Part shown: in pieces, positions 1 through 40,762 of the stretch | How positions within the stretch are numbered: position 1 is the stretch's first letter | Layout: the number at the start of each line of letters is the position of its first letter | NCBI GenBank assembly: GCA_965178125.1 | Contig: OZ237742.1 | Location: forward strand, 1 to 64,000 | Length of the DNA stretch: 64,000 bases | Origin: Bilabrum cf. latius | Taxonomy: Eukaryota | Direction of reading: 5' to 3' | The notes under the pieces: generated by a model | The model's database searches: none | The model's input: the letters and a program-made list of their open reading frames with translations, nothing else | Told to the model about the DNA's origin: nothing | Made by a program: the position numbers and the translations under genes

Positions 1-3000
1 CGCCTAAGTACCGCTGCAGTACTCTCACCGATGGTACCTTCCTCCAATGGCAAGCGGAACTAGTCCCGCCAGGGCCTCCGCATATCCTCCACGTCAAGCG
101 CATCCCAAGGCTCCACCTACCGTGCACGAAGCAGTCGCCTGGTCCTGTCGTAGACGGAAGTGCTCATATATCTGAACTTCTAGATCCGCCGCATGGCTGC
201 CAAGACTGCAGCTCGGGTGAGGCTGTCGACACGGGCAGCCTCTTGCGTCGAACCCGGCAGCGCCAGCGTCAAGCGCTCCCCTGCGTGCGTGCCCCTGCGA
301 ACCAAGTCGAGTTCCTCTTCCTTGACCAAACGGCCCTGCCGACGGACCGTGCCGATAGCAATCTGGAGCAGGTTGTCGTGTAGCACGGTGGCCGCCCTGC
401 CAGCAAGCATCAGCTGCAGTGGGGAGGCAGACTGGGTCCCATCCACCCTTATGGTATCCGGCACTCCGCCCAGCGGGAGCGACCCTAGCCTGAACCGTCC
501 GTCGTCATCCTAGCCGGTAAGACACAGCGCTAGCGGAAATGGCACACCAGGGGTGTTCACCGGAATCGCCGTCCCATGCGGAAACTTCTCGTTCTTGCCT
601 CCTCTCACCATGGCCGCAAATGCACCAATTGCCGCCAAGGGAACGTCCTCGTACGCCTTCTGGAGCGCGGAGACCATGTCCTCGAGCGTTACTCCCAGGT
701 TTCTCATGGTCTCGTGCATCAGCGAGGCTGGAGCTCCCAGTAAGGTGGCCGCTTTGGCCTGCTGCTCAATGCTCTGCGTCAGAGCCACGGTATTCTCGAG
801 CTGCATGACCACCTCGGACGCAAGCCTCCCTGGGCTGATTCGCACTACAGCAGTCAGTAGAGGGCCTGGTGCGTTGATCAGCACGGCAGACACCAAGGCC
901 GGGTGCAGCATTCGACCAATGACCCGGCCGAGCTCCACGCAGGGATCGTCACTGCCGCTCTGCAGGAACGACCTCAGATCCAGCAAGGCGCAGTCCTTGG
1001 GAGACTCAGTCCCAGCGGCGAATCCGACAACGTGGCGCCGGCTGTCAGCCCGTGTTACCGCGAGTGGTCGCTACCCCGTGCAGGCAATGAGCGAGGCCGA
1101 CTGCACACCCACCACGATGAGTGACGCTACGCCGTGCAGCAGCTTCGGAAGCACCTCTGGAGAGCGGGCCTCCGGATCCGTGATCTCCCTCACCCCGCCC
1201 CTGGTCACAACCTGAAGCACCATAGCCAGAGTTGCCTGGGCTACGCGGCACTGGCCGTTCCAGTTGCGTGGATCCTTCTCCACCGTTCGCCGTCGGTCCG
1301 CAATGGTGCCATCCGCCACATGCCAGATGGCCTGCCGCAGTCTGGCCTCGGGACGCGGAAGGACGGACTCCATGATGGACCGGGTCATGGCTTGCCCAGT
1401 CTGGGTGGGGGCCACCATCTGCGACACATCCAGCGCAAGCATGCGCAGCTCCCCTGCGACTGCCTGCTGAACAGCTAAACCGTCCGACACCTGCTCAGCC
1501 GCCATAGCCTTTATCTCGATACTGGCCGCCGTAGCCATGGCCCCTCGGACCGCCTCCTCCAAGTCCCGCGTGACGGCATGCGCCACCTCCCGCTGCACCA
1601 TGGCAGCAACTGTGTCAAAGAAGGGCGCTCGAACTGTCGACGTTCCTTCCGCCAGGGCATCCACGAGACTGGCGTGTCCGTCCTCAAGTCCCAGCGCCAT
1701 TGCTAGTCCCATCAGAAGACCGGGCCCTGCCATGCTGAATTCGACGCGAAGCGATGCTCGAGCGTCACCTATAGCCTGCAACCTGCGACACGCGATCTCG
1801 GTGGCCTCGTCGTGCGCAACCCTTGCCATGGTGGCCGCAGCAGCCCGCCCCACCTTTGGAACCTGCTGCCTGCATCGCTCCAGCTCACCATACAGCCGAG
1901 ACCCAAGCCGTTGGTGACTGTCGCCGCTGAGCCTCGTGGAGCGGAACGCCTGCTCGACGTACATCTGCACCCCGTGAGATACGCTCAGCATCGCGGGCAA
2001 GAGCTTACGAACAAACTCGTCGTCCCGCTCGCGGGTGGCCTGCGATACCAGCTCAGCCACGTGCTGAAAGTCATGCTTAGTCATGGCAGCTTGCGTATCG
2101 CCTCTGGCACGAGCCCTGAACTGCACACTGCCCAGAGATGGGCTCATGAGCAGGCAGTTCACGTTCTCTTCATCCACTTGCATTGGGAAGACGAACTAGC
2201 TCCCCACCTGTCCGAAGCCCGGTACGGAGGAGATGTCGGCCACGGCATCACCCGCAAGTGCCATGGCATGACGCAGGCCCAGCACGCTCGGAAACGCAGC
2301 GTGCATGTCGCCGCCACCTGCCATGAAGCCCAGGTCCATGGAGAGCAACACGGGGTCCTGGCACTGGATCTCTGGTCGATGTTGCCCGAGCTCCGTCGCC
2401 ATGCGGATGGCGTCCCTCCCGGCGGCAAGAGGGTCGACAAACACTACAGGGTGCCCGCCGTGGTCCGGAGGGTCCTCCTCAGGCTCACCAGCGGCCGGAG
2501 CCTGTCGCAGCATCAGGGATCGCATCACAGCAACCGCCGCCTGGTTCTGGCCCCCGACGACCAGGATTCGGTAGATCGAGCACGCCAGGACCCCTTGGAT
2601 CTTCAGTCCGTCAGGATATCTCAGCCTGTGGGGCAGATGGCTGACCTGGGTGGGATGCAGGGCCGCGTCCTCGCTCAGAACCCGGAGCACTTCGCACAGG
2701 AAGTACCCGGGCCTGATGCGATGCCCGCCATCAGGCTCAGCAGTCCCACGCACGCCCATGTGACGGTCTCCAGGACTCAAAGTCTCGGTGTGGGTGCTTC
2801 CGCGAGAGACACCGACGGGCGAGTCGGTTGCTACAATCGCGTACGATGCGGAGAGTCCCTGCGCCGTCGTGGCAGTCCTCGGGGTCGACTGCACCATGAA
2901 CTCGGGCCCGCGGTACCCCTCCTTCTCTCTCACGTAGTTGATGGCACCTGCGATGCCAATCAGGAGCGACTGCACGGCCTGGTCGAACGGCGTTCCAACG

Positions 3001-5762: not shown

Positions 5763-6377
5763 GACCAGACTGCGGACAGAGATGCCACAAGGATATATAA
5801 TATAGTTGGGATGTGATTAGTATGATGGTACGATGCGTTATTCCCTGGTGGCGCACTCGTCACGGCGGTGCCGCGCATCAGGTTCCGCACATGCTCCCGT
5901 CCACCAGAATTATTGTCGGAGTACTCCGCAATCAAGCAAAGTGAGCATTCGGCGCGCAGCCTACGCATCGCCGGGTAATTGTTTGCAGTATGTTATGATA
6001 TTTGATAATATGCGCGAGATTAGTTCCAACGATTGCTAGCCGTCGCGCAATTGAGGAAAACGTCTGCAGCACGTTGTGGCAAGCGCATCGCGCATCGCAC
6101 TCCCCAGGCATACCCCATCGATTTGACTCACGTTTGCTTCAGGTTTGTATGCACAATATGCTATAGTAGCTATATGCCAAGTATGCGCCTCTGCAATTAA
6201 ATACAAGGAGCGCAAAATGAGTGATTCTAATTCAGCGCTGCTGGTTGGGTGAATGAGCAGATTTCGGGATGACGAGTACAAGTTGTGTGCACCTACGTGT
6301 CTCGCGCCTGTGATCCCTGCCGCGTTCAAACGCCTGTTTGTGGCTTAATCCGTGTTCCCTTGGCACCACAGAGTACT
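5763..6377. promoter_or_regulatory. Putative bidirectional promoter region between two divergent orphan genes
   Basis: 615-bp interval, visibly more AT-rich than its flanks, between ATGs at 5762 (-) and 6378 (+); TATA-like GATATATAATATAG near 5792, about 30-45 bp upstream of the minus-strand ATG. Confidence 0.4.
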
Positions 6378-7009: not shown

Positions 7010-7043
<34 letters not shown>

Positions 7044-7940: not shown

Positions 7941-8181
7941 GAAGCAGCTAGCGGGATGGCAATGGAGGTCAGTAGCAGCTAGACCAGCTTGTGAGAGGAG
8001 TTTGCCAATGTGCCGGCTAGTGACCTGTTAGGACGCAATAGTAGGAACCAACGGCCATTCTACCATAACAAGCCTAATATCAAGGCACTCCATCACGCAA
8101 GGGAATAAACACTTACACGTAAGTAACTGAAAAGAGCCATGTAATTGAATATCGGTCGTATCCCGCTGAAATCTCAACACC

Positions 8182-11100
8182 TTTGTACGATCCCCATGTA
8201 GCTTTGCTAGACCCCCATGTAGCATGCCATACCTCCATGTAGCCATGCACACACCCATACACATTTGCACGACCTCCATGTAGACATGCACACACCCCAT
8301 GTAGCCATGCACACACCCCATGTAGCATGCCATTCCGCCCATGTAGCCATGCACATACCCCCATACACATTTGCACGATCTACATGTAGCCATGCACACA
8401 CCCAATGTAGCCATGCACACACCCCATGTAGCCATGCACACACCCCATGTAGGATGCCATTCCGCCCATGTAGCCATGCACATACCCCCATACACATCTG
8501 CAAGATCCTCATGTAGCCATGCACACACCCCATGTAGCTTTGCACACACCCCATGTAAGTTTGCACGATCCCCATGTAGCATGCCATACCGCCCATGTAG
8601 CCATGCACATACCCCCATACACATTTGCACGATCTCCATGTAGCCATGCACACACCCAATGTAGCCATGCACACACCCAATGTAGCTTTGCACACACCCC
8701 ATGTAAGTTTGCACGATCCCCATGTAGCATGCCATACCGCCCATGTAGCCATGCACATACCCCCATACACATTTGCACGATCTACATGTAGCCATGCACA
8801 CACCCAATGTAGCCATGCACACACCCCATGTAGCCATGCACACACCCCATGTAGGATGCCATTCCGCCCATGTAGCCATGCACATACCCCCATACACATC
8901 TGCAAGATCCTCATGTAGCCATGCACACACCCCATGTAGCTTTGCACACACCCCATGTAAGTTTGCACGATCCCCATGTAGCATGCCATACCGCCCATGT
9001 AGCCATGCACATACCCCCATACACATTTGCACGATCTCCATGTAGCCATGCACACACCCCATGTAGCCATGCACACACCCATACACATTTGCACGACCTC
9101 CATGTAGACATGCACACACCCCATGTAGCCATGCACACACCCCATGTAGCATGCCATACCGCCCATGTAGCCATGCACATACCCCCATACACATTTGCAC
9201 GATCTACATGTAGCCATGCACACACCCAATGTAGCCATGCACACACCCCATGTAGCCATGCACACACCCCATGTAGGATGCCATTCCGCCCATGTAGCCA
9301 TGCACATAGCCCCATACACATTTGCACGATCCTCATGTACCCATGCACACACCCCATGTAGCCATGCACACACCCCACACACATTTGCAAGATCTCCATG
9401 TAGCCATGCACAGACCCCATGTAGCATGCCATACCTCCATTGTAGCCATGCACACACCCCATGTAGCCATGCACACACCCCATGTAGCCATGCACATACC
9501 CCCATACACATTTGCACGATCTCCATGTAGCCATGCACACACACCATGTAGCCATGCACACACCCCATGTAGCATGACATACCGCCCATGTAGCCATGCA
9601 CATACCCCCATACACATTTGCAAGATCTCCATGTAGCCATGCACACACACCATGTAGCATGCCATACCTCCATTGTAGCCATGCACACACCCCATGTAGC
9701 ATGACATACCGCCCATGTAGCCATACACACACCTCACATACACATTTGCACGATCTCCATGTAGCCATGCACACACACCATGTAGCCATGCACACACCCC
9801 ATGTAGCATGACATACCGCCCATGTAGCCATGCACATACCCCCATACACATTTGCAAGATCTCCATGTAGCCATGCACACACACCATGTAGCATGCCATA
9901 CCTCCATTGTAGCCATGCACACACCCCATGTAGCATGACATACCGCCCATGTAGCCATACACACACCTCACATACACATTTGCACGATCTCCATGTAGCC
10001 ATGCACACACCCAATGTAGCCATACACAGACACCATGTAGCATGCCATACCTCCATTGTAGCCATGCACACACCCCATGTAGCCATGCACACACCCCATG
10101 TAGCCATGCACATACCCCCATACACATTTGCACGATCTCCATGTAGCCATGCACACACACCATGTAGCCATGCACACACCCCATGTAGCATGACATACCG
10201 CCCATGTAGCCATGCACATACCCCCATACACATTTGCAAGATCTCCATGTAGCCATGCACACACACCATGTAGCATGCCATACCTCCATTGTAGCCATGC
10301 ACACACCCCATGTAGCATGACATACCGCCCATGTAGCCATACACACACCTCACATACACATTTGCACGATCTCCATGTAGCGATGCACACACACCATGTA
10401 GCCATACACAGACCCCATGTAGCATGATATACCGCTCATGTAGCCATGCACATACCCCCATACACATTTGCAAGACCTCCATGTAGCCATGCACACACCC
10501 CATGTAGCATGCCATACCGCCCATGTAGCCATACACACACCTCACATACACATTTGCACGATCTCCATGTAGCCATGCACACACACCATGTAGCCATACA
10601 CAGACCCCATGTAGCATGATATACCGCTCATGTAGCCATGCACATACCCCCATACACATTTGCAAGACCTCCATGTAGACATGCACACACCCCATGTAGC
10701 ATGCCATTCCGCTCATGTAGCCATGCACATACCCCCATACACATTTGCAAGATCTCCATGTAGCCATGCACACACACCATGTAGCATGCCATACCTCCAT
10801 TGTAGCCATGCACACACCCCATGTAGCATGACATACCGCCCATGTAGCCATGCACATACCCCCATACACATTTGCAAGATCTCCATGTAGCCATGCACAC
10901 ACACCATGTAGCATGCCATACCTCCATTGTAGCCATGCACACACCCCATGTAGCATGACATACCGCCCATGTAGCCATACACACACCTCACATACACATT
11001 TGCACGATCTCCATGTAGCGATGCACACACACCATGTAGCCATACACAGACCCCATGTAGCATGATATACCGCTCATGTAGCCATGCACATACCCCCATA

Positions 11101-12133
11101 CACAATTGCAAGATCTCCATGTAGCCATGCACAGACCCCATGTAGCATGCCATTCCGCTCATGTAGCCATGCACATACCCCCATACACATTTGCAAGACC
11201 TCCATGTAGCCATGCACACACCCCATGTAGCATGACATACCGCCCATGTAGCCATACACACACCTCACATACACATTTGCACGACCTCCATGTAGCCATG
11301 CACACACACCATGTAGCCATACACAGACCCCATGTAGCATGATATACCGCTCATGTAGCCATGCACATACCCCCATACACAATTGCAAGATCTCCATGTA
11401 GCCATGCACAGACCCCATGTAGCATGCCATTCCGCTCATGTAGCCATGCACATACCCCCATACACATTTGCAAGACCTCCATGTAGCCATGCACACACCC
11501 CATGTAGCATGACATACCTCCATTGTAGCCATGCACATACCCCCATACACATTTGCAAGATCTCCATGTAGCCATGCACAGACCCCATGTAGGATGCCAT
11601 TCCGCTCATGTAGCCATGCACATACCCCCATACACATTTGCAAGATCTCCATGTAGCCATGCACACACACCATGTAGCATGCCATACCTCCATTGTAGCC
11701 ATGCACACACCCCATGTAGCATGACATACCGCCCATGTAGCCATGCACATACCCCCATACACATTTACAAGATCTCCATGTAGCCATGCACACACCCCAT
11801 GTAGCATGCCATACCGCCCATGTAGCCATACACACTCCTCACATACACATTTGCACGATCTCCATGTAGCCATGCACACACCCCATGTAGCCATACACAG
11901 ACCCCATGTAGCATGACATACCGCCCATGTAGCCATGCACATACCCCCATACACATTTGCACGATCTCCATGTAGCCATGCACACACCCAATGTAGCCAT
12001 ACACAGACCCCATGTAGCATGACATACCGCCCATGTAGGCATGCACATACCCCCATACACATTTGCAAGATCCTCATGTAGCCATGCACAAACTCAATGT
12101 TACCATGCTAACACCCCAAGCAGCATGACATTC
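8182..12133. repeat. Complex satellite of ~21/22/43-bp modules with CATGTAGC core (~3.9 kb)
   Basis: Shuffled modules CATGTAGCCATGCACACACCC, CATGTAGCATGCCATACCGCC and CATGTAGCCATGCACATACCCCCATACACATTTGCACGATCTC; strongly C/A-rich on +. Confidence 0.97.
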
Positions 12134-13901
12134 CGCATCGTATAGCACGCACATCCTGTCTGTGGGCCGAGAAATCGGCGTTCTCCGTATAGCTAGGGTT
12201 ACGAAAGTGGCATATTTGGGTGTTTAATGGTCCATATCTCAGCCGATACTGGTCGTTGATGGCTGCGGCTTCGTCATAGCCGGGTCACGACTGCTTTCGC
12301 GTCGGTTACTTTTCGAACTCGGAGTCGAATTTCACACCCCTTCCTGCCCTCACTGTGCCCTCGGACTGTATCATGGAGGTGCTCCAGACCCACAGGCATG
12401 TGCTGCGACGCAGTTTGACCACCAGCATGCGTCACGGCGAATGGTAGAGTCAGAGACCTGAGATCTATGTGTTCCAGGATATGTGATCTCGGATTGCCGA
12501 AGTAGCCCGGCGTGGCATTTTTATAGAATGCATATTCAAACGCACCCATGCCGCATCTGGGTGCTGAGCTATCGCGGCTTGCGCAAATGTTTGGGCTAGC
12601 CCGAATCTTTGATCCATGTTTTCTCAGCCCGGAAATATGTCCAATGCCTTACACCTTCCACATGATGTCTACGCACCTCTGTTCCCTGGAATTACTCGGA
12701 GTTTCATAATTTTCAACCAAGTCTCACTCTTACCGGTCTGTGACATGCACCCTATTCCTAGCCTTGCCCCTTTGTGGGGGAGTTGCAAATTCGATTTGCT
12801 GATTCATGAGTTTGTATTATTGCACTGTATCATTTACGGTACTTGGTTTTCTGACATGATTAAAAAATCCACCCAATTTTCGGGGCCAAGCTCCTCTCGC
12901 CGGTATATGACATACACCCTATTCCTAGCCTTGCCCCTCTGTGGGGGAGTTGCAAATTCGATTTGCTGATTCATGAGTTTGCATTATTGCACTGTATCAT
13001 TTACGGTACTTGGTTTTCTGACATGATTAAAAAATCCACCCAATTTTCGGGGCCAACCTCCTCTCGCCGGTATATGACATACACCCTATTCCTAGCCTTG
13101 CCCCTCTGTGGGGGAGTTGCAAATTCGATTTGCTGATTCATGAGTTTGTATTATTGCACTGTATCATTTACGGTACTTGGTTTTCTGACATTAATGAAGA
13201 TCGCCAGTCACCCAGTCACTGTGGGCGTGGCGCCGACCAGATGAGCACTTACTTGTATTGCTCGATTGCTCGAGAGCTGTGTGCCAGCCATTCTCCAAAC
13301 TTCGCACACATGACACATGATGATGACTCAAAGTGCGAATGAACGGCTGAAATCAAGAAATCTCATTTACAGCTAATGAACGCCCCTTAGGAAAACCTCT
13401 TACCTAACCCGAACCCATGTACGTATGCAAACCCAACCATGTAGGTGTGCAAACCCCATACTTGCAATGCTTGATGTAATAGAATCACGGGGAATATTTG
13501 CCCCCAGTTGTGGTCCCCGGCCGTCCCGATGCAGTTTGAACGGTCTTCATATCTCATCTGGTTGCCGAGATCGCCGCGCGCATTTTTTCTGCCTGAAAAT
13601 CTTCGTCCCCCCATACTGTCGCCGCGCGGTCAAAACGGAACCTGGGGAACATTTGCCCCCTGTTGTGGTCCCAGGCCGTCCCGATGCAGTATGAACGGTC
13701 TTCATATCTCATCTGGTTGCCGAGATCGTCGCGCGCATTTTTTCTGCATGACAATCTTCGTCCCACCATATTATCGCCGCGCGGTCAAAACGGAACCTGG
13801 GGAACATTTGCCCCCTGTTGTGGTCCCAGGCCGTCCCGATGCAGTTTGAACGGTCTTCATATCTCATCTGGTTGCCGAGATCGCCGCGCGCATTTTTTCT
13901 G

Positions 13902-16434: not shown

Positions 16435-18242
16435 GGGGAACATTTGCCCCCAGTTGTGGTCCCAGGCCGTCCCGATGCAGTTTGAACGGTCTTCATATCT
16501 CATCTGGTTGCCGAGATCGCCGCGCGCATTTTTTCTGCATGACAATCTTCGTCCCACCATACTGTCGCCGCGCGGTATAAACGGAACCTGGGGAACATTT
16601 GCCCCCTGTTGTGGTCCCAGGCCGTCCCGATGCAGTTTGAACGGTCTTCATATCTCCTGTGGTTGCCGAGATCGCCGCGCGCATTTTTTCTGCCTGAAAA
16701 TCTTCGTCCCCCCATACTGTCGCCGCGCGGTCAAAACGGAATCTGGGGAACATTTGCCCCACATTGTACCCCCAGGCCGTCCCGATGCAGTATGAACGGT
16801 CTTCATATCTCATCTGGTTGCCGAGATCGTCGCGCGCATTTTTTCTGCATGACAATCTTCGTCCAGCCATATTGTCGCCGCGCGGTATAAACGGAACCTG
16901 GGGAACATTTGCCCCCAGTTGTGGTCCCAGGCCGTCCCGATGCAGTTTGAACGGTCTTCATATCTCATCTGGTTGCCGAGATCGCCGCGCGCATTTTTTC
17001 TGCATGACAATCTTCGTCCAGCCATATTGTCGCCGCGCGGTATAAACGGAACCTGGGGAACATTTGCCCCCAGTTGTGGTCCCAGGCCGTCCCGATGCAG
17101 TTTGAACGGTCTTCATATCTCCTGTGGTTGCCGAGATCGCCGCGCGCATTTTTTCTGCCTGAAAATCTTCGTCCCCCCATACTGTCGCCGCGCGGTCAAA
17201 ACGGAATCTGGGGAACATTTGCCCCACATTGTACCCCCAGGCCGTCCCGATGCAGTATGAACGGTCTTCATATCTCATCTGGTTGCCGAGATCGTCGCGC
17301 GCATTTTTTCTGCATGACAATCTTCGTCCAGCCATATTGTCGCCGCGCGGTATAAACGGAACCTGGGGAACATTTGCCCCCAGTTGTGGTCCCAGGCCGT
17401 CCCGATGCAGTTTGAACGGTCTTCATATCTCATCTGGTTGCCGAGATCGCCGCGCGCATTTTTTCTGCATGACAATCTTCGTCCAGCCATATTGTCGCCG
17501 CGCGGTATAAACGGAACCTGGGGAACATTTGCCCCCAGTTGTGGTCCCAGGCCGTCCCGATGCAGTTTGAACGGTCTTCATATCTCATCTGGTTGCCGAG
17601 ATCGTCGCGCGCATTTTTTCTGCATGACAATCTTCGTCCAGCCATATTGTCGCCGCGCGGTATAAACGGAATCTGGGGAACATTTGCCCCACATTGTACC
17701 CCCAGGCCGTCCCGATGCAGTTTGAACGGTCTTCATATCTCATCTGGTTGCCGAGATCGTTGCGCGCATTTTTTCTGCATGACAATCTTCGTCCAGCCAT
17801 ATTGTCGCCGCGCGGTCAAAACGGAACCTGGGGAACATTTGCCCCCTGTTTTGGTCCCCGGCCGTCCCAATGCAGTATGAACGGTCTTCATATCTCATCT
17901 GGTTGCCGAGATCGCCGCGCGCATTTTTTCTGCCTGAAAATCTTCGTCCCCCCATACTGTCGCCGCGCGGTCAAAACGGAACCTGGGGAACATTTGCCCC
18001 CTGTTGTGGTCCCAGGCCGTCCCGATGCAGTATGAACGGTCTTCATATCTCATCTGGTTGCCGAGATCGCCGCGCGCATTTTTTCTGCATGACAATCTTC
18101 GTCCCACCATATTATCGCCGCGCGGTCAAAACGGAACCTGGGGAACATTTGCCCCCAGTTGTGGTCCCCGGCCGTCCCGATGCAGTATGAACGGTCTTCA
18201 TATCTCATCTGGTTGCCGAGATCGCCGCGCGCATTTTTTCTG
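16435..18242. repeat. 155-bp tandem array (super-unit 2)
   Basis: GGGGAACATTTGCCCC recurs every 155 bp, about 11.7 copies. Confidence 0.95.
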
Positions 18243-20146
18243 CGTATAGCTAGGGTTACGAAAGTGGCATATTTGGGTGTTTAATGGTCCATATCTCAGT
18301 CGATACTGGTCGTTGATGGCTGCGGCTTCGTCATAGCCGGGTCACGACTGCTTTCGCGTCGGTTACTTTTCGAACTCGGAGTCGAATTTCACACCCCTTC
18401 CTGCCCTCACTGTGCCCTCGGACTGTATCATGGAGGTGCTCCAGACCCACAGGCATGTGCTGCGACGCAGTTTGACCACCAGCATGCATCACGGCGAATG
18501 GTAGAGCCGAACCAGTTTACCTGCTCCTATCTGATTCCGGATTGCAAGCGAACATGTGCCCGCGTCGTCTCGACTAGTTCCGACTCCGGCCTATCTAACC
18601 CGCATCGTATAGCACGCACATCCTGTCTGTGGGCCGAGAAATCGGCGTTCTCCGTATAGCTAGGGTTACGAAAGTGGCATATTTGGGTGTTTAATGGTCC
18701 ATATCTCAGCCGATACTGGTCGTTGATGGCTGCGGCTTCGTCATAGCCGGGTCACGACTGCTTTCGCGTCGGTTACTTTTCGAACTCGGAGTCGAATTTC
18801 ACACCCCTTCCTGCCCTCACTGTGCCCTCGGACTGTATCATGGAGGTGCTCCAGACCCACAGGCATGTGCTGCGACGCAGTTTGGCCACCAGCATGCATC
18901 ACGGCGAATGGTAGAGCCGAACCAGTTTACCTGCTCCTATCTGATTCCGGATTGCAAGCGAACATGTGCCCGCGTCGTCTCGACTAGTTCCGACTCCGGC
19001 CTATCTAACCCGCATCGTATAGCACGCACATCCTGTCTGTGGGCCGAGAAATCGGCGTTCTCCGTATAGCTAGGGTTACGAAAGTGGCATATTTGGGTGT
19101 TTAATGGTCCATATCTCAGCCGATACTGGTCGTTGATGGCTGCGGCTTCGTCATAGCCGGGTCACGACTGCTTTCGCGTCGGTTACTTTTCGAACTCGGA
19201 GTCGAATTTCACACCCCTTCCTGCCCTCACTGTGCCCTCGGACTGTATCATGGAGGTGCTCCAGACCCACAGGCATGTGCTGCGACGCAGTTTGGCCACC
19301 AGCATGCATCACGGCGAATGGTAGAGCCGAACCAGTTTACCTGCTCCTATCTGATTCCGGATTGCAAGCGAACATGTGCCCGCGTCGTCTCGACTAGTTC
19401 CGACTCCGGCCTATCTAACCCGCATCGTATAGCACGCACATCCTGTCTGTGGGCCGAGAAATCGGCGTTCTCCGTATAGCTAGGCTTACGAAAGTGGCAT
19501 ATTTGGGTGTTTAATGGTCCATATCTCAGCCGATACTGGTCGTTGATGGCTGCGGCTTCGTCATAGCCGGGTCACGACTGCTTTCGCGTCGGTTACTTTT
19601 CGAACTCGGAGTCGAATTTCACACCCCTTCCTGCCCTCACTGTGCCCTCGGACTGTATCATGGAGGTGCTCCAGACCCACAGGCATGTGCTGCGACGCAG
19701 TTTGGCCACCAGCATGCATCACGGCGAATGGTAGAGCCGAACCAGTTTACCTGCTCCTATCTGATTCCGGATTGCAAGCGAACATGTGCCCGCGTCGTCT
19801 CGACTAGTTCCGACTCCGGCCTATCTAACCCGCATCGTATAGCACGCACATCCTGTCTGTGGGCCGAGAAATCGGCGTTCTCCGTATAGCTAGGGTTACG
19901 AAAGTGGCATATTTGGGTGTTTAATGGTCCATATCTCAGCCGATACTGGTCGTTGATGGCTGCGGCTTCGTCATAGCCGGGTCACGACTGCTTTCGCGTC
20001 GGTTACTTTTCGAACTCGGAGTCGAATTTCACACCCCTTCCTGCCCTCACTGTGCCCTCGGACTGTATCATGGAGGTGCTCCAGACCCACAGGCATGTGC
20101 TGCGACGCAGTTTGACCACCAGCATGCATCACGGCGAATGGTAGAG
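18243..20146. repeat. 410-bp tandem array (super-unit 3)
   Basis: Five occurrences of the unit marker at 410-bp spacing. Confidence 0.95.
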
Positions 20147-20437
20147 TCAGAGCCATGAAATCCATGTGTTCCAGGATATGTGATCTCGGATTGCCGAAGT
20201 AGCCCGGCGTGGCATTTTTATAGAATGCATATTCAAACGCACTCATGCCGCATCTGGTTGCTGAGCTATCGGGACTTGCGCAAATGTTTGGGCTAGCCCG
20301 AATCTTTGATCCATGTTTTCTCAGCCCGGAAATATGTCCAATGCCTTACACCTTCCACATGATGTCTACGCACCTCTGTTCCCTGGAATTACTCGGAGTT
20401 TCATAATTTTCAACCAAGTCTCACTCTTACCGGTCTG

Positions 20438-21055
20438 TGACATGCACCCTATTCCTAGCCTTGCCCCTTTGTGGGGGAGTTGCAAATTCGATTTGCTGAT
20501 TCATGAGTTTGTATTATTGCACTGTATCATTTACGGTACTTGGTTTTCTGACATGATTAAAAAATCCACCCAATTTTCGGGGCCAACCTCCTCTCGCCGG
20601 TATATGACATACACCCTATTCCTAGCCTTGCCCCTTTGTGGGGGAGTTGCAAATTTGATTTGCTGATTCATGAGTTTGCATTATTGCACTGTATCATTTA
20701 CGGTACTTGGTTTTCTGACATGATTAAAAAATCCACCCAATTTTCGGGGCCAACCTCCTCTCGCCGGTATATGACATACACCCTATTCCTAGCCTTGCCC
20801 CTCTGTGGGGGAGTTGCAAATTCGATTTGCTGATTCATGAGTTTGCATTATTGCACTGTATCATTTACGGTACTTGGTTTTCTGACATGATTAAAAAATC
20901 CACCCAATTTTCGGGGCCAACCTCCTCTCGCCGGTATATGACATACACCCTATTCCTAGCCTTGCCCCTCTGTGGGGGAGTTGCAAATTCGATTTGCTGA
21001 TTCATGAGTTTGTATTATTGCACTGTATCATTTACGGTACTTGGTTTTCTGACAT
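20438..21055. repeat. 167-bp tandem array (super-unit 3; others at ~12741-13191, 15687-16137, 24016-24466, 29177-29627)
   Basis: CACCCTATTCCTAGCCTTGCCCC recurs every 167 bp. Confidence 0.95.
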
Positions 21056-21352
21056 TAATGAAGATCGCCAGTCACCCAGTCACTGTGGGCGTGGCGCCGA
21101 CCAGATGAGCACTTACTTGTATTGCTCGATTGCTCGAGAGCTGTGTGCCAGCCATTCTCCAAACTTCGCACACATGACACATGATGATGACTCAAAGTGC
21201 GAATGAACGGCTGAAATCAAGAAATCTCATTTACAGCTAATGAACGCCCCTTAGGAAAACCTCTTACCTAACCCGAACCCATGTACGTATGCAAACCCAA
21301 CCATGTAGGTGTGCAAACCCCATACTTGCAATGCTTGATGTAATAGAATCAC

Positions 21353-22230
21353 GGGGAACATTTGCCCCCAGTTGTGGTCCCCGGCCGTCCCGATGCAGTT
21401 TGAACGGTCTTCATATCTCATCTGGTTGCCGAGATCGCCGCGCGCATTTTTTCTGCCTGACAATCTTCGTCCAGCCATATTGTCGCCGCGCGGTATAAAC
21501 GGAACCTGGGGAACATTTGCCCCCAGTTGTGGTCCCAGGCCGTCCCAATGCAGTATGAACGGTCTTCATATCTCATCTGGTTGCCGAGATCGCCGCGCGC
21601 ATTTTCTCTGCCTGAAAATCTTCATCCCCCCATACTGTCGCCGCGCGGTCAAAACGGAACCTGGGGAACATTTGCCCCCTGTTGTGGTCCCAGGCCGTCC
21701 CAATGCAGTTTGAACGGTCTTCATATCTCATCTGGTTGCCGAGATCGCCGCGCGCATTTTTTCTGCCTGAAAATCTTCGTCCCACCATATTGTCGCCGCG
21801 CGGTCAAAATGGAACCTGGGGAACATTTGCCCCCAGTTGTGGTCCCCGGCCGTCCCAATGCAGTATGAACGGTCTTCATATCTCATCTGGTTGCCGAGAT
21901 CGCCGCGCGCATTTTTTCTGCCTGAAAATCTTCGTCCCCCCATACTGTCGCCGCGCGGTCAAAACGGAACCTGGGGAACATTTGCCCCCTGTTGTGGTCC
22001 CAGGCCGTCCCGATGCAGTATGAACGGTCTTCATATCTCATCTGGTTGCCGAGATCGTCGCGCGCATTTTTTCTGCATGACAATCTTCGTCCCACCATAT
22101 TATCGCCGCGCGGTCAAAACGGAACCTGGGGAACATTTGCCCCCTGTTGTGGTCCCAGGCCGTCCCGATGCAGTTTGAACGGTCTTCATATCTCATCTGG
22201 TTGCCGAGATCGCCGCGCGCATTTTTTCTG
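21353..22230. repeat. 155-bp tandem array (super-unit 3)
   Basis: About 5.7 copies of the 155-bp unit. Confidence 0.95.
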
Positions 22231-23724
22231 CGTATAGCTAGGGTTACGAAAGTGGCATATTTGGGTGTTTAATGGTCCATATCTCAGCCGATACTGGTCG
22301 TTGATGGCTGCGGCTTCGTCATAGCCGGGTCACGACTGCTTTCGCGTCGGCTACTTTTCGAACTCGGAGTCGAATTTCACACCCCTTCCTGCCCTCACTG
22401 TGCCCTCGGACTGTATCATGGAGGTGCTCCAGACCCACAGGCATGTGCTGCGACGCAGTTTGACCACCAGCATGCATCACGGCGAATGGTAGAGCCGAAC
22501 CAGTTTACCTGCTCCTATCTGATTCCGGATTGCAAGCGAACATGTGCCCGCGTCGTCTCGACTAGTTCCGACTCCGGCCTATCTAACCCGCATCGTATAG
22601 CACGCACATCCTGTCTGTGGGCCGAGAAATCGGCGTTCTCCGTATAGCTAGGGTTACGAAAGTGGCATATTTGGGTGTTTAATGGTCCATATCTCAGCCG
22701 ATACTGGTCGTTGATGGCTGCGGCTTCGTCATAGCCGGGTCACGACTGCTTTCGCGTCGGTTACTTTTCGAACTCGGAGTCGAATTTCACACCCCTTCCT
22801 GCCCTCACTGTGCCCTCGGACTGTATCATGGAGGTGCTCCAGACCCACAGGCATGTGCTGCGACGCAGTTTGGCCACCAGCATGCATCACGGCGAATGGT
22901 AGAGCCGAACCAGTTTACCTGCTCCTATCTGATTCCGGATTGCAAGCGAACATGTGCCCGCGTCGTCTCGACTAGTTCCGACTCCGGCCTATCTAACCCG
23001 CATCGTATAGCACGCACATCCTGTCTGTGGGCCGAGAAATCGGCGTTCTCCGTATAGCTAGGGTTACGAAAGTGGCATATTTGGGTGTTTAATGGTCCAT
23101 ATCTCAGCCGATACTGGTCGTTGATGGCTGCGGCTTCGTCATAGCCGGGTCACGACTGCTTTCGCGTCGATTACTTTTCGAACTCGGAGTCGAATTTCAC
23201 ACCCCTTCCTGCCCTCACTGTGCCCTCGGACTGTATCATGGAGGTGCTCCAGACCCACAGGCATGTGCTGCGACGCAGTTTGACCACCAGCATGCATCAC
23301 GGCGAATGGTAGAGCCGAACCAGTTTACCTGCTCCTATCTGATTCCGGATTGCAAGCGAACATGTGCCCGCGTCGTCTCGACTAGTTCTGACTCCGGCCT
23401 ATCTAACCCGCATCGTATAGCACGCACATCCTGTCTGTGGGCCGAGAAATCGGCGTTCTCCGTATAGCTAGGGTTACGAAAGTGGCATATTTGGGTGTTT
23501 AATGGTCCATATCTCAGCCGATACTGGTCGTTGATGGCTGCGGCTTCGTCATAGCCGGGTCACGACTGCTTTCGCGTCGGTTACTTTTCGAACTCGGAGT
23601 CGAATTTCACACCCCTTCCTGCCCTCACTGTGCCCTCGGACTGTATCATGGAGGTGCTCCAGACCCACAGGCATGTGCTGCGACGCAGTTTGACCACCAG
23701 CATGCATCACGGCGAATGGTAGAG
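22231..23724. repeat. 410-bp tandem array (super-unit 4)
   Basis: Four occurrences at 410-bp spacing. Confidence 0.95.
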
Positions 23725-24763
23725 TCAGAGCCATGAAATCCATGTGTTCCAGGATATGTGATCTCGGATTGCCGAAGTAGCCCGGCGTGGCATTTTTATA
23801 GAATGCATATTCAAACGCACTCATGCCGCATCTGGTTGCTGAGCTATCGGGACTTGCGCAAATGTTTGGGCTAGCCCGAATCTTTGATCCATGTTTTCTC
23901 AGCCCGGAAATATGTCCAATGCCTTACACCTTCCACATGATGTCTACGCACCTCTGTTCCCTGGAATTACTCGGAGTTTCATAATTTTCAACCAAGTCTC
24001 ACTCTTACCGGTCTGTGACATGCACCCTATTCCTAGCCTTGCCCCTTTGTGGGGGAGTTGCAAATTCGATTTGCTGATTCATGAGTTTGTATTATTGCAC
24101 TGTATCATTTACGGTACTTGGTTTTCTGACATGATTAAAAAATCCACCCAATTTTCGGGGCCAACCTCCTCTCGCCGGTATATGACATACACCCTATTCC
24201 TAGCCTTGCCCCTTTGTGGGGGAGTTGCAAATTTGATTTGCTGATTCATGAGTTTGCATTATTGCACTGTATCATTTACGGTACTTGGTTTTCTGACATG
24301 ATTAAAAAATCCACCCAATTTTCGGGGCCAACCTCCTCTCGCCGGTATATGACATACACCCTATTCCTAGCCTTGCCCCTTTGTGGGGGAGTTGCAAATT
24401 CGATTTGCTGATTCATGAGTTTGCATTATTGCACTGTATCATTTACGGTACTTGGTTTTCTGACATTAATGAAGATCGCCAGTCACCCAGTCACTGTGGG
24501 CGTGGCGCCGACCAGATGAGCACTTACTTGTATTGCTCGATTGCTCGAGAGCTGTGTGCCAGCCATTCTCCAAACTTCGCACACATGACACATGATGATG
24601 ACTCAAAGTGCGAATGAACGGCTGAAATCAAGAAATCTCATTTACAGCTAATGAACGCCCCTAAGGAAAACCTCTTACCTAACCCGAACCCATGTACGTA
24701 TGCAAACCCAACCATGTAGGTGTGCAAACCCCATACTTGCAATGCTTGATGTAATAGAATCAC

Positions 24764-26571
24764 GGGGAACATTTGCCCCCAGTTGTGGTCCCAGGCCGTC
24801 CCGATGCAGTTTGAACGGTCTTCATATCTCATCTGGTTGCCGAGATCGCCGCGCGCATTTTTTCTGCATGACAATCTTCGTCCCACCATACTGTCGCCGC
24901 GCGGTATAAACGGAACCTGGGGAACATTTGCCCCCTGTTGTGGTCCCAGGCCGTCCCGATGCAGTTTGAACGGTCTTCATATCTCCTGTGGTTGCCGAGA
25001 TCGCCGCGCGCATTTTTTCTGCCTGAAAATCTTCGTCCCCCCATACTGTCGCCGCGCGGTCAAAACGGAATCTGGGGAACATTTGCCCCACATTGTACCC
25101 CCAGGCCGTCCCGATGCAGTATGAACGGTCTTCATATCTCATCTGGTTGCCGAGATCGTCGCGCGCATTTTTTCTGCATGACAATCTTCGTCCAGCCATA
25201 TTGTCGCCGCGCGGTATAAACGGAACCTGGGGAACATTTGCCCCCAGTTGTGGTCCCAGGCCGTCCCGATGCAGTTTGAACGGTCTTCATATCTCATCTG
25301 GTTGCCGAGATCGCCGCGCGCATTTTTTCTGCATGACAATCTTCGTCCAGCCATATTGTCGCCGCGCGGTATAAACGGAACCTGGGGAACATTTGCCCCC
25401 AGTTGTGGTCCCAGGCCGTCCCGATGCAGTTTGAACGGTCTTCATATCTCCTGTGGTTGCCGAGATCGCCGCGCGCATTTTTTCTGCCTGAAAATCTTCG
25501 TCCCACCATACTGTCGCCGCGCGGTCAAAACGGAATCTGGGGAACATTTGCCCCACATTGTACCCCCAGGCCGTCCCGATGCAGTATGAACGGTCTTCAT
25601 ATCTCATCTGGTTGCCGAGATCGTCGCGCGCATTTTTTCTGCATGACAATCTTCGTCCAGCCATATTGTCGCCGCGCGGTATAAACGGAATCTGGGGAAC
25701 ATTTGCCCCCAGTTGTGGTCCCAGGCCGTCCCGATGCAGTTTGAACGGTCTTCATATCTCATCTGGTTGCCGAGATCGCCGCGCGCATTTTTTCTGCATG
25801 ACAATCTTCGTCCAGCCATATTGTCGCCGCGCGGTATAAACGGAACCTGGGGAACATTTGCCCCCTGTTGTGGTCCCAGGCCGTCCCGATGCAGTTTGAA
25901 CGGTCTTCATATCTCATCTGGTTGCCGAGATCGTCGCGCGCATTTTTTCTGCATGACAATCTTCGTCCAGCCATATTGTCGCCGCGCGGTATAAACGGAA
26001 TCTGGGGAACATTTGCCCCACATTGTACCCCCAGGCCGTCCCGATGCAGTTTGAACGGTCTTCATATCTCATCTGGTTGCCGAGATCGTTGCGCGCATTT
26101 TTTCTGCATGACAATCTTCGTCCAGCCATATTGTCGCCGCGCGGTCAAAACGGAACCTGGGGAACATTTGCCCCCTGTTTTGGTCCCCGGCCGTCCCAAT
26201 GCAGTATGAACGGTCTTCATATCTCATCTGGTTGCCGAGATCGCCGCGCGCATTTTTTCTGCCTGAAAATCTTCGTCCCCCCATACTGTCGCCGCGCGGT
26301 CAAAACGGAACCTGGGGAACATTTGCCCCCTGTTGTGGTCCCAGGCCGTCCCGATGCAGTATGAACGGTCTTCATATCTCATCTGGTTGCCGAGATCGCC
26401 GCGCGCATTTTTTCTGCATGACAATCTTCGTCCCACCATATTATCGCCGCGCGGTCAAAACGGAACCTGGGGAACATTTGCCCCCAGTTGTGGTCCCCGG
26501 CCGTCCCGATGCAGTATGAACGGTCTTCATATCTCATCTGGTTGCCGAGATCGCCGCGCGCATTTTTTCTG
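24764..26571. repeat. 155-bp tandem array (super-unit 4)
   Basis: About 11.7 copies; near-identical to 16435-18242 at offset 8329. Confidence 0.95.
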
Positions 26572-28885
26572 CGTATAGCTAGGGTTACGAAAGTGGCATA
26601 TTTGGGTGTTTAATGGTCCATATCTCAGTCGATACTGGTCGTTGATGGCTGCGGCTTCGTCATAGCCGGGTCACGACTGCTTTCGCGTCGGTTACTTTTC
26701 GAACTCGGAGTCGAATTTCACACCCCTTCCTGCCCTCACTGTGCCCTCGGACTGTATCATGGAGGTGCTCCAGACCCACAGGCATGTGCTGCGACGCAGT
26801 TTGACCACCAGCATGCATCACGGCGAATGGTAGAGCCGAACCAGTTTACCTGCTCCTATCTGATTCCGGATTGCAAGCGAACATGTGCCCGCGTCGTCTC
26901 GACTAGTTCCGACTCCGGCCTATCTAACCCGCATCGTATAGCACGCACATCCTGTCTGTGGGCCGAGAAATCGGCGTTCTCCGTATAGCTAGGGTTACGA
27001 AAGTGGCATATTTGGGTGTTTAATGGTCCATATCTCAGCCGATACTGGTCGTTGATGGCTGCGGCTTCGTCATAGCCGGGTCACGACTGCTTTCGCGTCG
27101 GTTACTTTTCGAACTCGGAGTCGAATTTCACACCCCTTCCTGCCCTCACTGTGCCCTCGGACTGTATCATGGAGGTGCTCCAGACCCACAGGCATGTGCT
27201 GCGACGCAGTTTGGCCACCAGCATGCATCACGGCGAATGGTAGAGCCGAACCAGTTTACCTGCTCCTATCTGATTCCGGATTGCAAGCGAACATGTGCCC
27301 GCGTCGTCTCGACTAGTTCCGACTCCGGCCTATCTAACCCGCATCGTATAGCACGCACATCCTGTCTGTGGGCCGAGAAATCGGCGTTCTCCGTATAGCT
27401 AGGGTTACGAAAGTGGCATATTTGGGTGTTTAATGGTCCATATCTCAGCCGATACTGGTCGTTGATGGCTGCGGCTTCGTCATAGCCGGGTCACGACTGC
27501 TTTCGCGTCGGTTACTTTTCGAACTCGGAGTCGAATTTCACACCCCTTCCTGCCCTCACTGTGCCCTCGGACTGTATCATGGAGGTGCTCCAGACCCACA
27601 GGCATGTGCTGCGACGCAGTTTGGCCACCAGCATGCATCACGGCGAATGGTAGAGCCGAACCAGTTTACCTGCTCCTATCTGATTCCGGATTGCAAGCGA
27701 ACATGTGCCCGCGTCGTCTCGACTAGTTCCGACTCCGGCCTATCTAACCCGCATCGTATAGCACGCACATCCTGTCTGTGGGCCGAGAAATCGGCGTTCT
27801 CCGTATAGCTAGGCTTACGAAAGTGGCATATTTGGGTGTTTAATGGTCCATATCTCAGCCGATACTGGTCGTTGATGGCTGCGGCTTCGTCATAGCCGGG
27901 TCACGACTGCTTTCGCGTCGGTTACTTTTCGAACTCGGAGTCGAATTTCACACCCCTTCCTGCCCTCACTGTGCCCTCGGACTGTATCATGGAGGTGCTC
28001 CAGACCCACAGGCATGTGCTGCGACGCAGTTTGGCCACCAGCATGCATCACGGCGAATGGTAGAGCCGAACCAGTTTACCTGCTCCTATCTGATTCCGGA
28101 TTGCAAGCGAACATGTGCCCGCGTCGTCTCGACTAGTTCCGACTCCGGCCTATCTAACCCGCATCGTATAGCACGCACATCCTGTCTGTGGGCCGAGAAA
28201 TCGGCGTTCTCCGTATAGCTAGGGTTACGAAAGTGGCATATTTGGGTGTTTAATGGTCCATATCTCAGCCGATACTGGTCGTTGATGGCTGCGGCTTCGT
28301 CATAGCCGGGTCACGACTGCTTTCGCGTCGATTACTTTTCGAACTCGGAGTCGAATTTCACACCCCTTCCTGCCCTCACTGTGCCCTCGGACTGTATCAT
28401 GGAGGTGCTCCAGACCCACAGGCATGTGCTGCGACGCAGTTTGACCACCAGCATGCATCACGGCGAATGGTAGAGCCGAACCAGTTTACCTGCTCCTATC
28501 TGATTCCGGATTGCAAGCGAACATGTGCCCGCGTCGTCTCGACTAGTTCTGACTCCGGCCTATCTAACCCGCATCGTATAGCACGCACATCCTGTCTGTG
28601 GGCCGAGAAATCGGCGTTCTCCGTATAGCTAGGGTTACGAAAGTGGCATATTTGGGTGTTTAATGGTCCATATCTCAGCCGATACTGGTCGTTGATGGCT
28701 GCGGCTTCGTCATAGCCGGGTCACGACTGCTTTCGCGTCGGTTACTTTTCGAACTCGGAGTCGAATTTCACACCCCTTCCTGCCCTCACTGTGCCCTCGG
28801 ACTGTATCATGGAGGTGCTCCAGACCCACAGGCATGTGCTGCGACGCAGTTTGACCACCAGCATGCATCACGGCGAATGGTAGAG
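26572..28885. repeat. 410-bp tandem array (super-unit 5)
   Basis: Six occurrences at 410-bp spacing. Confidence 0.95.
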
Positions 28886-29924
28886 TCAGAGCCATGAAAT
28901 CCATGTGTTCCAGGATATGTGATCTCGGATTGCCGAAGTAGCCCGGCGTGGCATTTTTATAGAATGCATATTCAAACGCACTCATGCCGCATCTGGTTGC
29001 TGAGCTATCGGGACTTGCGCAAATGTTTGGGCTAGCCCGAATCTTTGATCCATGTTTTCTCAGCCCGGAAATATGTCCAATGCCTTACACCTTCCACATG
29101 ATGTCTACGCACCTCTGTTCCCTGGAATTACTCGGAGTTTCATAATTTTCAACCAAGTCTCACTCTTACCGGTCTGTGACATGCACCCTATTCCTAGCCT
29201 TGCCCCTTTGTGGGGGAGTTGCAAATTCGATTTGCTGATTCATGAGTTTGTATTATTGCACTGTATCATTTACGGTACTTGGTTTTCTGACATGATTAAA
29301 AAATCCACCCAATTTTCGGGGCCAACCTCCTCTCGCCGGTATATGACATACACCCTATTCCTAGCCTTGCCCCTTTGTGGGGGAGTTGCAAATTTGATTT
29401 GCTGATTCATGAGTTTGCATTATTGCACTGTATCATTTACGGTACTTGGTTTTCTGACATGATTAAAAAATCCACCCAATTTTCGGGGCCAACCTCCTCT
29501 CGCCGGTATATGACATACACCCTATTCCTAGCCTTGCCCCTTTGTGGGGGAGTTGCAAATTCGATTTGCTGATTCATGAGTTTGCATTATTGCACTGTAT
29601 CATTTACGGTACTTGGTTTTCTGACATTAATGAAGATCGCCAGTCACCCAGTCACTGTGGGCGTGGCGCCGACCAGATGAGCACTTACTTGTATTGCTCG
29701 ATTGCTCGAGAGCTGTGTGCCAGCCATTCTCCAAACTTCGCACACATGACACATGATGATGACTCAAAGTGCGAATGAACGGCTGAAATCAAGAAATCTC
29801 ATTTACAGCTAATGAACGCCCCTAAGGAAAACCTCTTACCTAACCCGAACCCATGTACGTATGCAAACCCAACCATGTAGGTGTGCAAACCCCATACTTG
29901 CAATGCTTGATGTAATAGAATCAC

Positions 29925-31730
29925 GGGGAACATTTGCCCCCAGTTGTGGTCCCAGGCCGTCCCGATGCAGTTTGAACGGTCTTCATATCTCATCTGGTTG
30001 CCGAGATCGCCGCGCGCATTTTTTCTGCATGACAATCTTCGTCCCACCATACTGTCGCCGCGCGGTATAAACGGAACCTGGGGAACATTTGCCCCCTGTT
30101 GTGGTCCCAGGCCGTCCCGATGCAGTTTGAACGGTCTTCATATCTCCTGTGGTTGCCGAGATCGCCGCGCGCATTTTTTCTGCCTGAAAATCTTCGTCCC
30201 CCCATACTGTCGCCGCGCGGTCAAAACGGAATCTGGGGAACATTTTCCCCACATTGTACCCCCAGGCCGTCCCGATGCAGTATGAACGGTCTTCATATCT
30301 CATCTGGTTGCCGAGATCGTCGCGCGCATTTTTTCTGCATGACAATCTTCGTCCAGCCATATTGTCGCCGCGCGGTATAAACGGAATCTGGGGAACATTT
30401 GCCCCCAGTTGTGGTCCCAGGCCGTCCCGATGCAGTTTGAACGGTCTTCATATCTCATCTGGTTGCCGAGATCGCCGCGCGCATTTTTTCTGCATGACAA
30501 TCTTCGTCCAGCCATATTGTCGCCGCGCGGTATAAACGGAATCTGGGGAACATTTGCCCCCAGTTGTGGTCCCAGGCCGTCCCGATGCAGTTTGAACGGT
30601 CTTCATATCTCCTGTGGTTGCCGAGATCGCCGCGCGCATTTTTTCTGCCTGAAAATCTTCGTCCCCCCATACTGTCGCCGCGCGGTCAAAACGGAATCTG
30701 GGGAACATTTTCCCCACATTGTACCCCCAGGCCGTCCCGATGCAGTATGAACGGTCTTCATATCTCATCTGGTTGCCGAGATCGTCGCGCGCATTTTTTC
30801 TGCATGACAATCTTCGTCCAGCCATATTGTCGCCGCGCGGTCAAAACGGAACCTGGGGAACATTTGCCCCACATTGTACCCCCAGGCCGTCCCGATGCAG
30901 TTTGAACGGTCTTCATATCTCATCTGGTTGCCGAGATCGTCGCGCGCATTTTTTCTGCATGACAATCTTCGTCCAGCCATATTGTCGCCGCGCGGTCAAA
31001 ACGGAACCTGGGGAACATTTGCCCCCTGTTGTGGTCCCAGGCCGTCCCGATGCAGTTTGAACGGTCTTCATATCTCATCTGGTTGCCGAGATCGTCGCGC
31101 GCATTTTTTCTGCATGACAATCTTCGTCCAGCCATATTGTCGCCGCGCGGTCAAAACGGAACCTGGGGAACATTTGCCCCACATTGTACCCCCAGGCCGT
31201 CCCGATGCAGTTTGAACGGTCTTCATATCTCATCTGGTTGCCGAGATCGTCGCGCGCATTTTTTCTGCATGACAATCTTCGTCCAGCCATATTGTCGCCG
31301 CGCGGTCAAAACGGAACCTGGGGAACATTTGCCCCCTGTTGTGGTCCCAGGCCGTCCCGATGCAGTTTGAACGGTCTTCATATCTCATCTGGTTGCCGAG
31401 ATCGTCGCGCGCATTTTTTCTGCATGACAATCTTCGTCCAGCCATATTGTCGCCGCGCGGTCAAAACGGAACCTGGGGAACATTTTCCCCACATTGTACC
31501 CCCAGGCCGTCCCGATGCAGTTTGAACGGTCTTCATATCTCATCTGGTTGCCGAGATCGTCGCGCGCATTTTTTCTGCATGACAATCTTCGTCCAGCCAT
31601 ATTGTCGCCGCGCGGTATAAACGGAACCTGGGGAACATTTGCCCAACATTGTACCCCCAGGCCGTCCCGATGCAGTTTGAACGGTCCTCATATCTCATCT
31701 GGTTGCCGAGATCGTCGCGCGCATTTTTTC
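29925..31730. repeat. 155-bp tandem array (super-unit 5), abutting the telomere linker
   Basis: About 11.7 copies ending in CGCGCGCATTTTTTC. Confidence 0.95.
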
Positions 31731-31790
31731 GACAAAAAGTGAAGATGAAAATTTTTTTTCCCCGACCCTGTCCCTGACTTTATATTAGAT

Positions 31791-32065
31791 ACCCTAACCC
31801 TAACCCTAACCCTAACCCTAACCCTAACCCTAACCCTAACCCTAACCCTAACCCTAACCCTAACCCTAACCCTAACCCTAACCCTAACCCTAACCCTAAC
31901 CCTAACCCTAACCCTAACCCTAACCCTAACCCTAACCCTAACCCTAACCCTAACCCTAACCCTAACCCTAACCCTAACCCTAACCCTAACCCTAACCCTA
32001 ACCCTAACCCTAACCCTAACCCTAACCCTAACCCTAACCCTAACCCTAACCCTAACCCTAACCCT
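31791..32065 (+). repeat. Telomeric repeat tract (CCCTAA)~46, internal to the window
   Basis: 275 bp of uninterrupted CCCTAA (TTAGGG on minus); the orientation is that of a chromosome left end. Confidence 0.98.
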
Positions 32066-32138
32066 CAGAGTGCAGGATGGAACGCATACAATGGCATCGT
32101 CGTTGGCTCCGCAAACGAATGAGTGGCGCGCGATGGTG

Positions 32139-38285: not shown

Positions 38286-38403
38286 CTAGCTAGGAAAATG
38301 ACTTGTTGATGAATGGTGCCAGGTCCGAACGTTCGTGTGGGTGTCGCCGAACCTAACGGCCCTTTTTTCGCAACAGATTCATTTGCCGTTATCCCACGCT
38401 TCC

Positions 38404-40692: not shown

Positions 40693-40762
40693 TGCAGCGG
40701 TGCCGATCAAATGGACTGAGTACAACTGGCATGCATTCTAGTGGACCAGGACAACGAGTTAA

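Follow-up and report, generated by a model that had tools for sequence, protein, structure and literature searches.

The DNA lying outside an internal telomere tract at the left end of contig C8 of Bilabrum cf. latius is one long copy of a telomere-stacking element, F1, and is neither a one-off fusion nor the end of a virus. F1 and its sister families F2, F3 and F4 are real, genome-wide elements that are restricted to telomere tracts and face in a single direction. The window (the whole stretch of 64,000 nucleotides that was analysed, C8:1-64000) begins at base 1 of its contig in an assembly of 48.6 Mb and 111 contigs, so nothing is assembled farther out, although the first-pass annotation had presumed sequence to the left. 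Features of the window are given in Table 1.

Table 1. Features of the window, from the contig end inward.
Feature	Positions	Strand	Remarks
ORF-A, first 1,920 of 2,328 codons	1..5762	-	ORF call; contig end falls within the gene
GT..AG intron in ORF-A 5' UTR, 362 nt	5770..6131	-	stops 7 nt before the ATG
Putative ORF-B 5'-UTR intron	6249..6371	+	predicted from sequence only
ORF-B, 520 aa	6378..7940	+	ORF call
21-bp minisatellite	8192..12136		limited to the window's subfamily (also C11-left, C33-right)
Five-unit higher-order repeat	12120..31730		monomers of 410, 167 and 155 bp
F1 tail, fixed 60-bp proximal end	31731..31790	+	GATA abuts the telomere repeats
Internalised (CCCTAA)46 tract	31791..32065	+	45.8 perfect copies
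53-bp minisatellite	32125..32842
Host chromosome arm, ordinary genes	32843..64000

Much of what had been read from the window's letters was borne out. A (CCCTAA)46 tract, a 53-bp minisatellite and host genes follow one another as at a chromosome left end; distal to them are about 23.5 kb of tandem arrays (8192-31730, the 21-bp array and then the higher-order repeat) and two divergent genes, which are orphans in that neither ORF-A nor ORF-B has a Pfam family; and there is no opposing telomere tract, as (TTAGGG)4 or longer is absent from the first 40 kb of the window and from all 70 end regions surveyed. The description of the two genes as intronless holds for their coding parts but not for their 5' untranslated regions, where ORF-A has an intron seen in one contig and ORF-B a putative one. 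The genes proximal to the tract have Pfam matches (diphthamide synthesis, SGL, prohibitin, UCH and anoctamin), and positions 32843-40000 have no match at the other chromosome ends compared. Prohibitin matches, together with the virophage-like elements of the genome, tentatively suggest a Cafeteria-like bicosoecid host. The internal tract is read as what was once the chromosome end, to which the element was then added. At many ends the 53-bp minisatellite lies close on the inner side of the telomere tract, and it also occurs at the outer end of F4 units; 8.7 kb of the higher-order repeat is 99.85% identical at C28-left. Long genes of the window with intact Pfam domains read through TAG and use TAA and TGA as stops; TAG is taken as glutamine on the assumption of table 15 rather than from conserved columns, and bicosoecids are unmentioned in the genetic-code literature found. 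Both ORF-A and ORF-B read through TAG as host genes do.

The 161 bases around the outer edge of the tract match many contig ends. A 23-nt core of the F1 tail has 221 exact copies in the genome (92 forward and 129 reverse, with none for the control), and among the copies listed, 99 of 100 face inward from positions no more than about 32 kb from a contig end. The remaining one (C14:701364) comes after a scaffold N gap, behind which a complete chromosome-end stack stands mid-contig (C14:699500-704000, L050); this buried stack is likely a scaffolding misjoin of two chromosomes. The 70 end regions surveyed, which total 1.02 Mb with 40 kb of the window among them, contained 231 junctions between elements and tracts (192 of F1, 21 of F2, 13 of F4 and five of F3), none of which was reversed. 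Within the first 8-40 kb of each of 38 left ends, the F1 tail is present at 23 ends and some family at 29; this count is limited to left ends because right ends were partly picked for having matches.

From the outside in, F1 consists of variable satellites, ORF-A, a short divergent promoter region, ORF-B, subfamily-specific satellites, 155-bp repeats, the 60-bp tail and a telomere tract. Copies are cut short on the outer side, capped by a telomere tract and stacked head to tail. The 166 tract-bounded F1 units are at most 14.4 kb long, with a median of 1.0 kb (15 are shorter than 200 bp and only four reach at least 10 kb), and the median internal telomere tract comprises 60 repeats. Roughly 60 different cut points were found, many adjoining degenerate telomere repeats. 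The copy in the window, at more than 31.8 kb, is the longest F1 seen. The longest copies run into arrays of 839-bp or 23-bp repeats, and the outer end of a complete element is unassembled.

Many cut points are shared between units. The outer junction of 136 of the 166 units is common to another unit, and 22 of the roughly 60 junction types are found in two or more regions, counts that are slightly inflated because C85 is unplaced and two stretches of C42 represent one end. A 12.2-kb block of five units is present three times at C36-right, and a 13.5-kb array with near-identical internal tract lengths is common to C19-right, C22-right and the unplaced C85. One copy at C14-right is broken by a tract of 17 repeats and resumes 111 bp on. 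At eight inner junctions the tail is missing or incomplete, and several of these meet the tract at a few shared bases.

In several F1 subfamilies, tRNA-like A and B boxes followed by T runs lie on the plus strand upstream of ORF-B (for example L001:7790-8100), which suggests a small RNA transcribed by Pol III; the window's copy lacks this segment. It has no Rfam match, and relaxed ARAGORN predictions amounted to noise. At C36-right and C28-right the boxes are replaced by an expansion of a 10-bp repeat of up to 3.9 kb. Another subfamily, at C25-left (L004-L005), has the same 23-bp satellite on both sides of the gene pair, in inverted orientation.

Both genes are intact and under purifying selection. 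Full-length ORF-A encodes 2,328 amino acids with TAG as glutamine, is antisense in F1 and is free of stops in 22 of 22 copies, with dN/dS of 0.18-0.63 among six copies, whose pairs are not independent. ORF-B (509-526 amino acids, nine sequence variants genome-wide) has dN/dS of 0.16-0.77 among these nine, again in non-independent pairs, and its C-terminus is near 1 in many pairs. Its product has a globular-looking N-terminal portion of 180 amino acids, an acidic and basic middle and a helical-looking C-terminus. Three sequencing runs of one study, which may be the source of the assembly, cover the F1 genes in all of 30 bins, and the run of another study covers 24 of the 30.

ORF-A is likely transcribed and spliced, as judged from one contig of one run (X1) that joins position 5769 to 6132 and skips a GT..AG segment retained in runs X2-X4; the runs are unstranded, and a classifier rated this contig as probably DNA. 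The donor motif of this intron is present in 21 of 22 genomic copies. A 5'-UTR intron in ORF-B is predicted from a CAG acceptor and pyrimidine tract before the ATG at 26 of 26 starts and a candidate GT donor kept in seven of seven aligned copies; the contigs of public sequencing runs that were examined gave no RNA support for it.

F2, F3 and F4 resemble F1 in anatomy. F2 and F3 end in GATA before the repeats as F1 does, and the end of F4 differs. F2 and F3 usually lie inward of F1, though not at C26-right, C27-right and C29-right, among others. The antisense ORF of F2 is 24% identical to ORF-A over 665 amino acids (69 bits, compared with a maximum of 27 in 50 shuffles), and F4 has a large ORF of 2,142 amino acids on the sense strand. 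Direct profile comparisons of the whole large proteins were weak. A motif of about 110 amino acids, at about residues 850-960 of ORF-A, links ORF-A, F2 ORF-A and the F4 ORF in leave-one-out profile searches of 2,379 ORFs (E from 2e-8 to 5e-4). The large proteins of F1, F2 and F4 are remote homologues under purifying selection, with dN/dS of 0.21 between two F4 subfamilies. The ORF-B proteins of F2 and F3 match each other (127 bits), but F1 ORF-B does not match them above shuffles. Used as queries against the genome, ORF-A, the F4 protein and F3 ORF-B had ten, eight and four matches respectively, all near contig ends.

Searches beyond this genome detected no homologue of the proteins. ORF-A (residues 620-2328, compared with sequences of near length) had no homologue in a set of 5.8 billion sequences; against 1.84 billion representatives it had five matches, all of them fragments 97-100% identical to it; and viral contigs contained no match to ORF-A or to the shared motif. 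This motif is too variable for a metagenome scan, and its best PDB match, an oligoribonuclease (E 0.77), is not significant. No outside homologue of the F4 protein was found. None of the element proteins matches a Pfam or PDB family, and the sole PHROG row has an E value of 0.12. AlphaFold models are of low confidence (pLDDT 36 for ORF-A and 30 for the F4 protein). ORF-A and ORF-B have no match to a helicase, recombinase, integrase, capsid, polymerase or terminase; for helicases this means none above threshold in Pfam, PHROG or PDB, which leaves room for a very remote one. Rfam has no match at 5700-17000 or 28800-31800. The genome has 14 short GIY-YIG matches, none of them in the telomeric families.

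The first-pass annotation had seen no reverse transcriptase (RT), integrase or capsid motif, and profile searches still detect none. It had nevertheless proposed the terminus of a large virus as one origin of the block. HHV-6 is a virus that integrates at telomeres, and a linear element bounded by telomere repeats and encoding a large orphan protein would suit a virus of that type. Given an element of only two genes without the hallmarks of a virus (capsid, polymerase, packaging genes, integrase), present in hundreds of short truncated units that are mostly 1-kb fragments, and with a GC content of 55-68% in its gene region compared with about 30% in the readily recognised virophage-like elements of this genome, such an origin is extremely unlikely.

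A chromosome end fusion or an assembly misjoin had also been considered for the window's junction, and either is very unlikely. A fusion relic is contradicted by the missing opposing tract and by the uniform polarity of the junctions. Bacterial-type DNA is joined to terminal tracts at several other ends, as a misjoin would have it, but the window's junction is the standard junction of the family, near-identical elements of the window's subfamily stand at C11-left, C28-left and C33-right, and the F1 genes are covered by runs of two studies. Mapping relative to other telomeres, as had been proposed, showed the junction and the genes recurring at many ends with the same polarity, and the suggestion of a telomere-attached mobile element is supported. 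Misjoining was dismissed for the family, which recurs genome-wide, and survives for the position of this copy: because the assembly also joins bacterial DNA to terminal tracts, the placement at C8-left is provisional, and there is a modest chance that a misjoin affects which copy lies there, not whether the family exists. This placement and part of the sharing between chromosomes could be assembly error.

Bacterial-type DNA was found directly outside the terminal tract at C14-left (L034:1-3441) and C15-left (L036:1-3802), where Pfam matches to alkylation-repair, sigma factor and O-methyltransferase genes confirm it. ORF content or GC suggests the same for C30-left, C35-left, C8-right, C20-right, C27-right and C42-right. 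It is always outermost and differs at each end; the join at C14-left terminates in the bases of the F1 tail. Because this DNA adjoins terminal tracts, end chimeras probably occur in the assembly. The joins are probably library or assembly chimeras, and real capture of prey DNA at telomeres is conceivable.

On balance F1 seems to spread by telomere-primed copying of DNA with capping by telomerase, as in the models for yeast Y' elements and MoTeR arrays. The G-rich 3' overhang of a chromosome end would pair with an internal (CCCTAA)n tract of another end, of its own end or of an excised circle. Synthesis would then proceed outward, always copying the fixed tail first, which would explain the invariant inner junction and the polarity that are observed. 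Copying would halt early, or the new end would break, and telomerase would cap it, leaving the observed variable outer truncations beside repeats that are often degenerate; falling off or breaking followed by capping needs no RT and fits the kept introns. Repeated rounds would yield the tandem and cross-chromosome duplicates of multi-unit blocks that are observed. Copying at the DNA level is indicated by the identical multi-unit arrays on different chromosomes, the common cut points and the repeated block, although misassignment of reads to the wrong end might account for part of this sharing. Any copying primed by the G-strand 3' end of a chromosome would leave the inner end fixed and the outer end ragged. 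Three observations do not favour copying of DNA: the unit lengths resemble those of retrocopies, three families share a GATA end before the repeats for which passive recombination has no need, and the few-base inner junctions are not predicted by homology-driven invasion.

These same features make it possible, though we would not put it first, that new units are retrocopies like those of Terminon/Athena or HeT-A elements, which DNA recombination only amplifies later. By the route to which we give the same limited credence, a plus-strand RNA ending in CCCUAA repeats would anneal to the G-overhang and be copied by an RT that has escaped recognition. This could be a diverged part of ORF-A, the product of a gene in the outer region (the outer end of a complete F1 being unassembled, there is room for an RT gene in it), an element of the interior working in trans, or telomerase. 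The fixed inner end with C-strand repeats, the outer truncation and the head-to-tail arrays match Terminons as they are described in the portion of PMC6431247 consulted; very short units, priming-like junctions of a few bases, the shared GATA end and the plus-strand tRNA-like boxes of several subfamilies point the same way, and RT-bearing elements exist in the interior of the genome. Against this, ORF-A, ORF-B, F2 ORF-A and the F4 protein have no RT match, and none of the 84 RVT_1 matches in the genome lies in terminal arrays. Comparison of the element proteins with a TERT profile was negative, and a TERT query recovered only TERT, which is a weak test. No hammerhead core was found near the tails (no Rfam match at 28800-31800 and no plus-strand core in the last 3 kb at five tails). 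In F1 and F2, ORF-A runs antisense; the putative intron of ORF-B, on the sense strand, is kept, and the window's copy would require an RNA of more than 31 kb.

Copying of either kind might be promoted by the element. ORF-A and ORF-B may act in telomere targeting or copying of their own element, as suggested by homologues down to 24% identity that are found only in telomeric units. That the family consists of ordinary host genes and satellites of the subtelomere, which move passively when telomeres fail and are repaired and do not promote themselves, is by comparison unlikely: host enzymes would suffice for every copying step (as in the part of PMC8381367 consulted) and ORF-A resembles a normal spliced gene in the host code, but there are four families with separate fixed ends, their large proteins, homologous at 24% identity, were found only in telomere-bounded units, and outer truncations repeatedly destroy ORF-A, which would be unfavourable for a needed host gene. 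More tentatively than we propose telomere-primed copying, F1-F4 might constitute an undescribed superfamily of telomere-specific elements without an RT, transposase or helicase of any known family, added to chromosome tips by their own orphan protein of about 2,100-2,300 amino acids, perhaps with host telomerase, which would possibly act on an element template ending in GATA and CCCTAA repeats.

Among known systems, the Y' elements of Saccharomyces cerevisiae are likewise gene-carrying tandem units at chromosome ends with telomeric repeats between them in the presence of telomerase. According to the section of PMC5354574 consulted, Y' elements move by invasion of internal telomeric repeats, a route that the shared multi-unit arrays of F1 would fit. 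They encode a helicase and number one to four copies per end, whereas F1-F4 have no helicase match, two divergent genes, four families and stacks that can reach a dozen units or more per end, most of them truncated. MoTeR arrays are modelled in an excerpt of PMC8381367 as amplified in tandem by loop-back invasion (the TAIR model). MoTeR and FoTeR share with F1-F4 the CCCTAA repeats at a fixed end, interstitial tracts, truncated copies and internal tandem repeats (excerpts of PMC8381367 and PMC12857005), and F1-F4 match them in being confined to telomere tracts in one polarity; they are CRE-clade non-LTR retrotransposons with an RT, and no RT was detected in F1-F4. The 3' tracts of FoTeR have 3-8 repeats in the text seen of PMC12857005, compared with the much longer median here. 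Terminons, in the pages of PMC6431247 that were available, reach 40 kb, carry accessory orphan ORFs in head-to-tail arrays, are truncated at the 5' side by telomeric repeats and have reverse-complement repeats at the 3' side. F1-F4 differ from these endonuclease-deficient Penelope-like (Terminon/Athena) elements in that RVT_1 and TERT profiles detected no Penelope RT, with the outer end unassembled, in that no hammerhead was detected, and in the antisense orientation of the largest ORF of F1 and F2.

The HeT-A and TART elements of Drosophila form polar head-to-tail stacks with outer truncation, HeT-A having no RT of its own, in a genome without telomerase and short telomere repeats. In B. cf. 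latius both are present, and the element arrays examined contained no TART-like RT partner. F1 appears to behave like Y' and MoTeR arrays and to be built like a Terminon, yet searches did not detect the enzyme of each system. What sets it apart is that its large proteins show no relationship to any outside protein and that no RT is detectable; in the parts of the literature seen, the described telomere stackers rely on an RT (MoTeR, FoTeR and Terminons) or carry a helicase (Y'). Here four families of the same anatomy, with a common unannotated large protein, hold most of the examined ends of a telomerase-positive protist; the main texts of open-licence literature contained no description of such elements in its group. 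The system can be used to test how selfish DNA exploits the 3' end of telomeres, and whether ALT-like copying runs beside telomerase in wild cells.

Other elements were encountered at or near chromosome ends. At C23-right (L104, L099) there is a Virophage/Polinton-like element of about 30% GC with a capsid match and a polymerase-like ORF. Another Virophage/Polinton-like element, at C28-left, is cut and capped by a telomere tract, and its integrase-chromodomain and helicase-like genes (C28:15001-19700; L069-L070, L110) lie within an F3 unit. A long ORF at C20-left was considered as a further element and rejected as a host-type gene. The nearest RT element inspected, 10 kb in from the left end of C37, is of a type scattered through the interior and has no end in common with F1-F4; it possesses an intact RT ORF (C37:10224-13739, L080:224-3739) with 52 related matches across the interior and a C-terminus that we take to be a CCHC and nuclease-like motif. 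An element of this type is a possible RT donor in trans. TERT is present with a frame open across the 1,131 codons read, which contains a long (Ala-Gly)n stretch encoded by a 6-bp repeat before the RNA-binding domain (L021:300-800).
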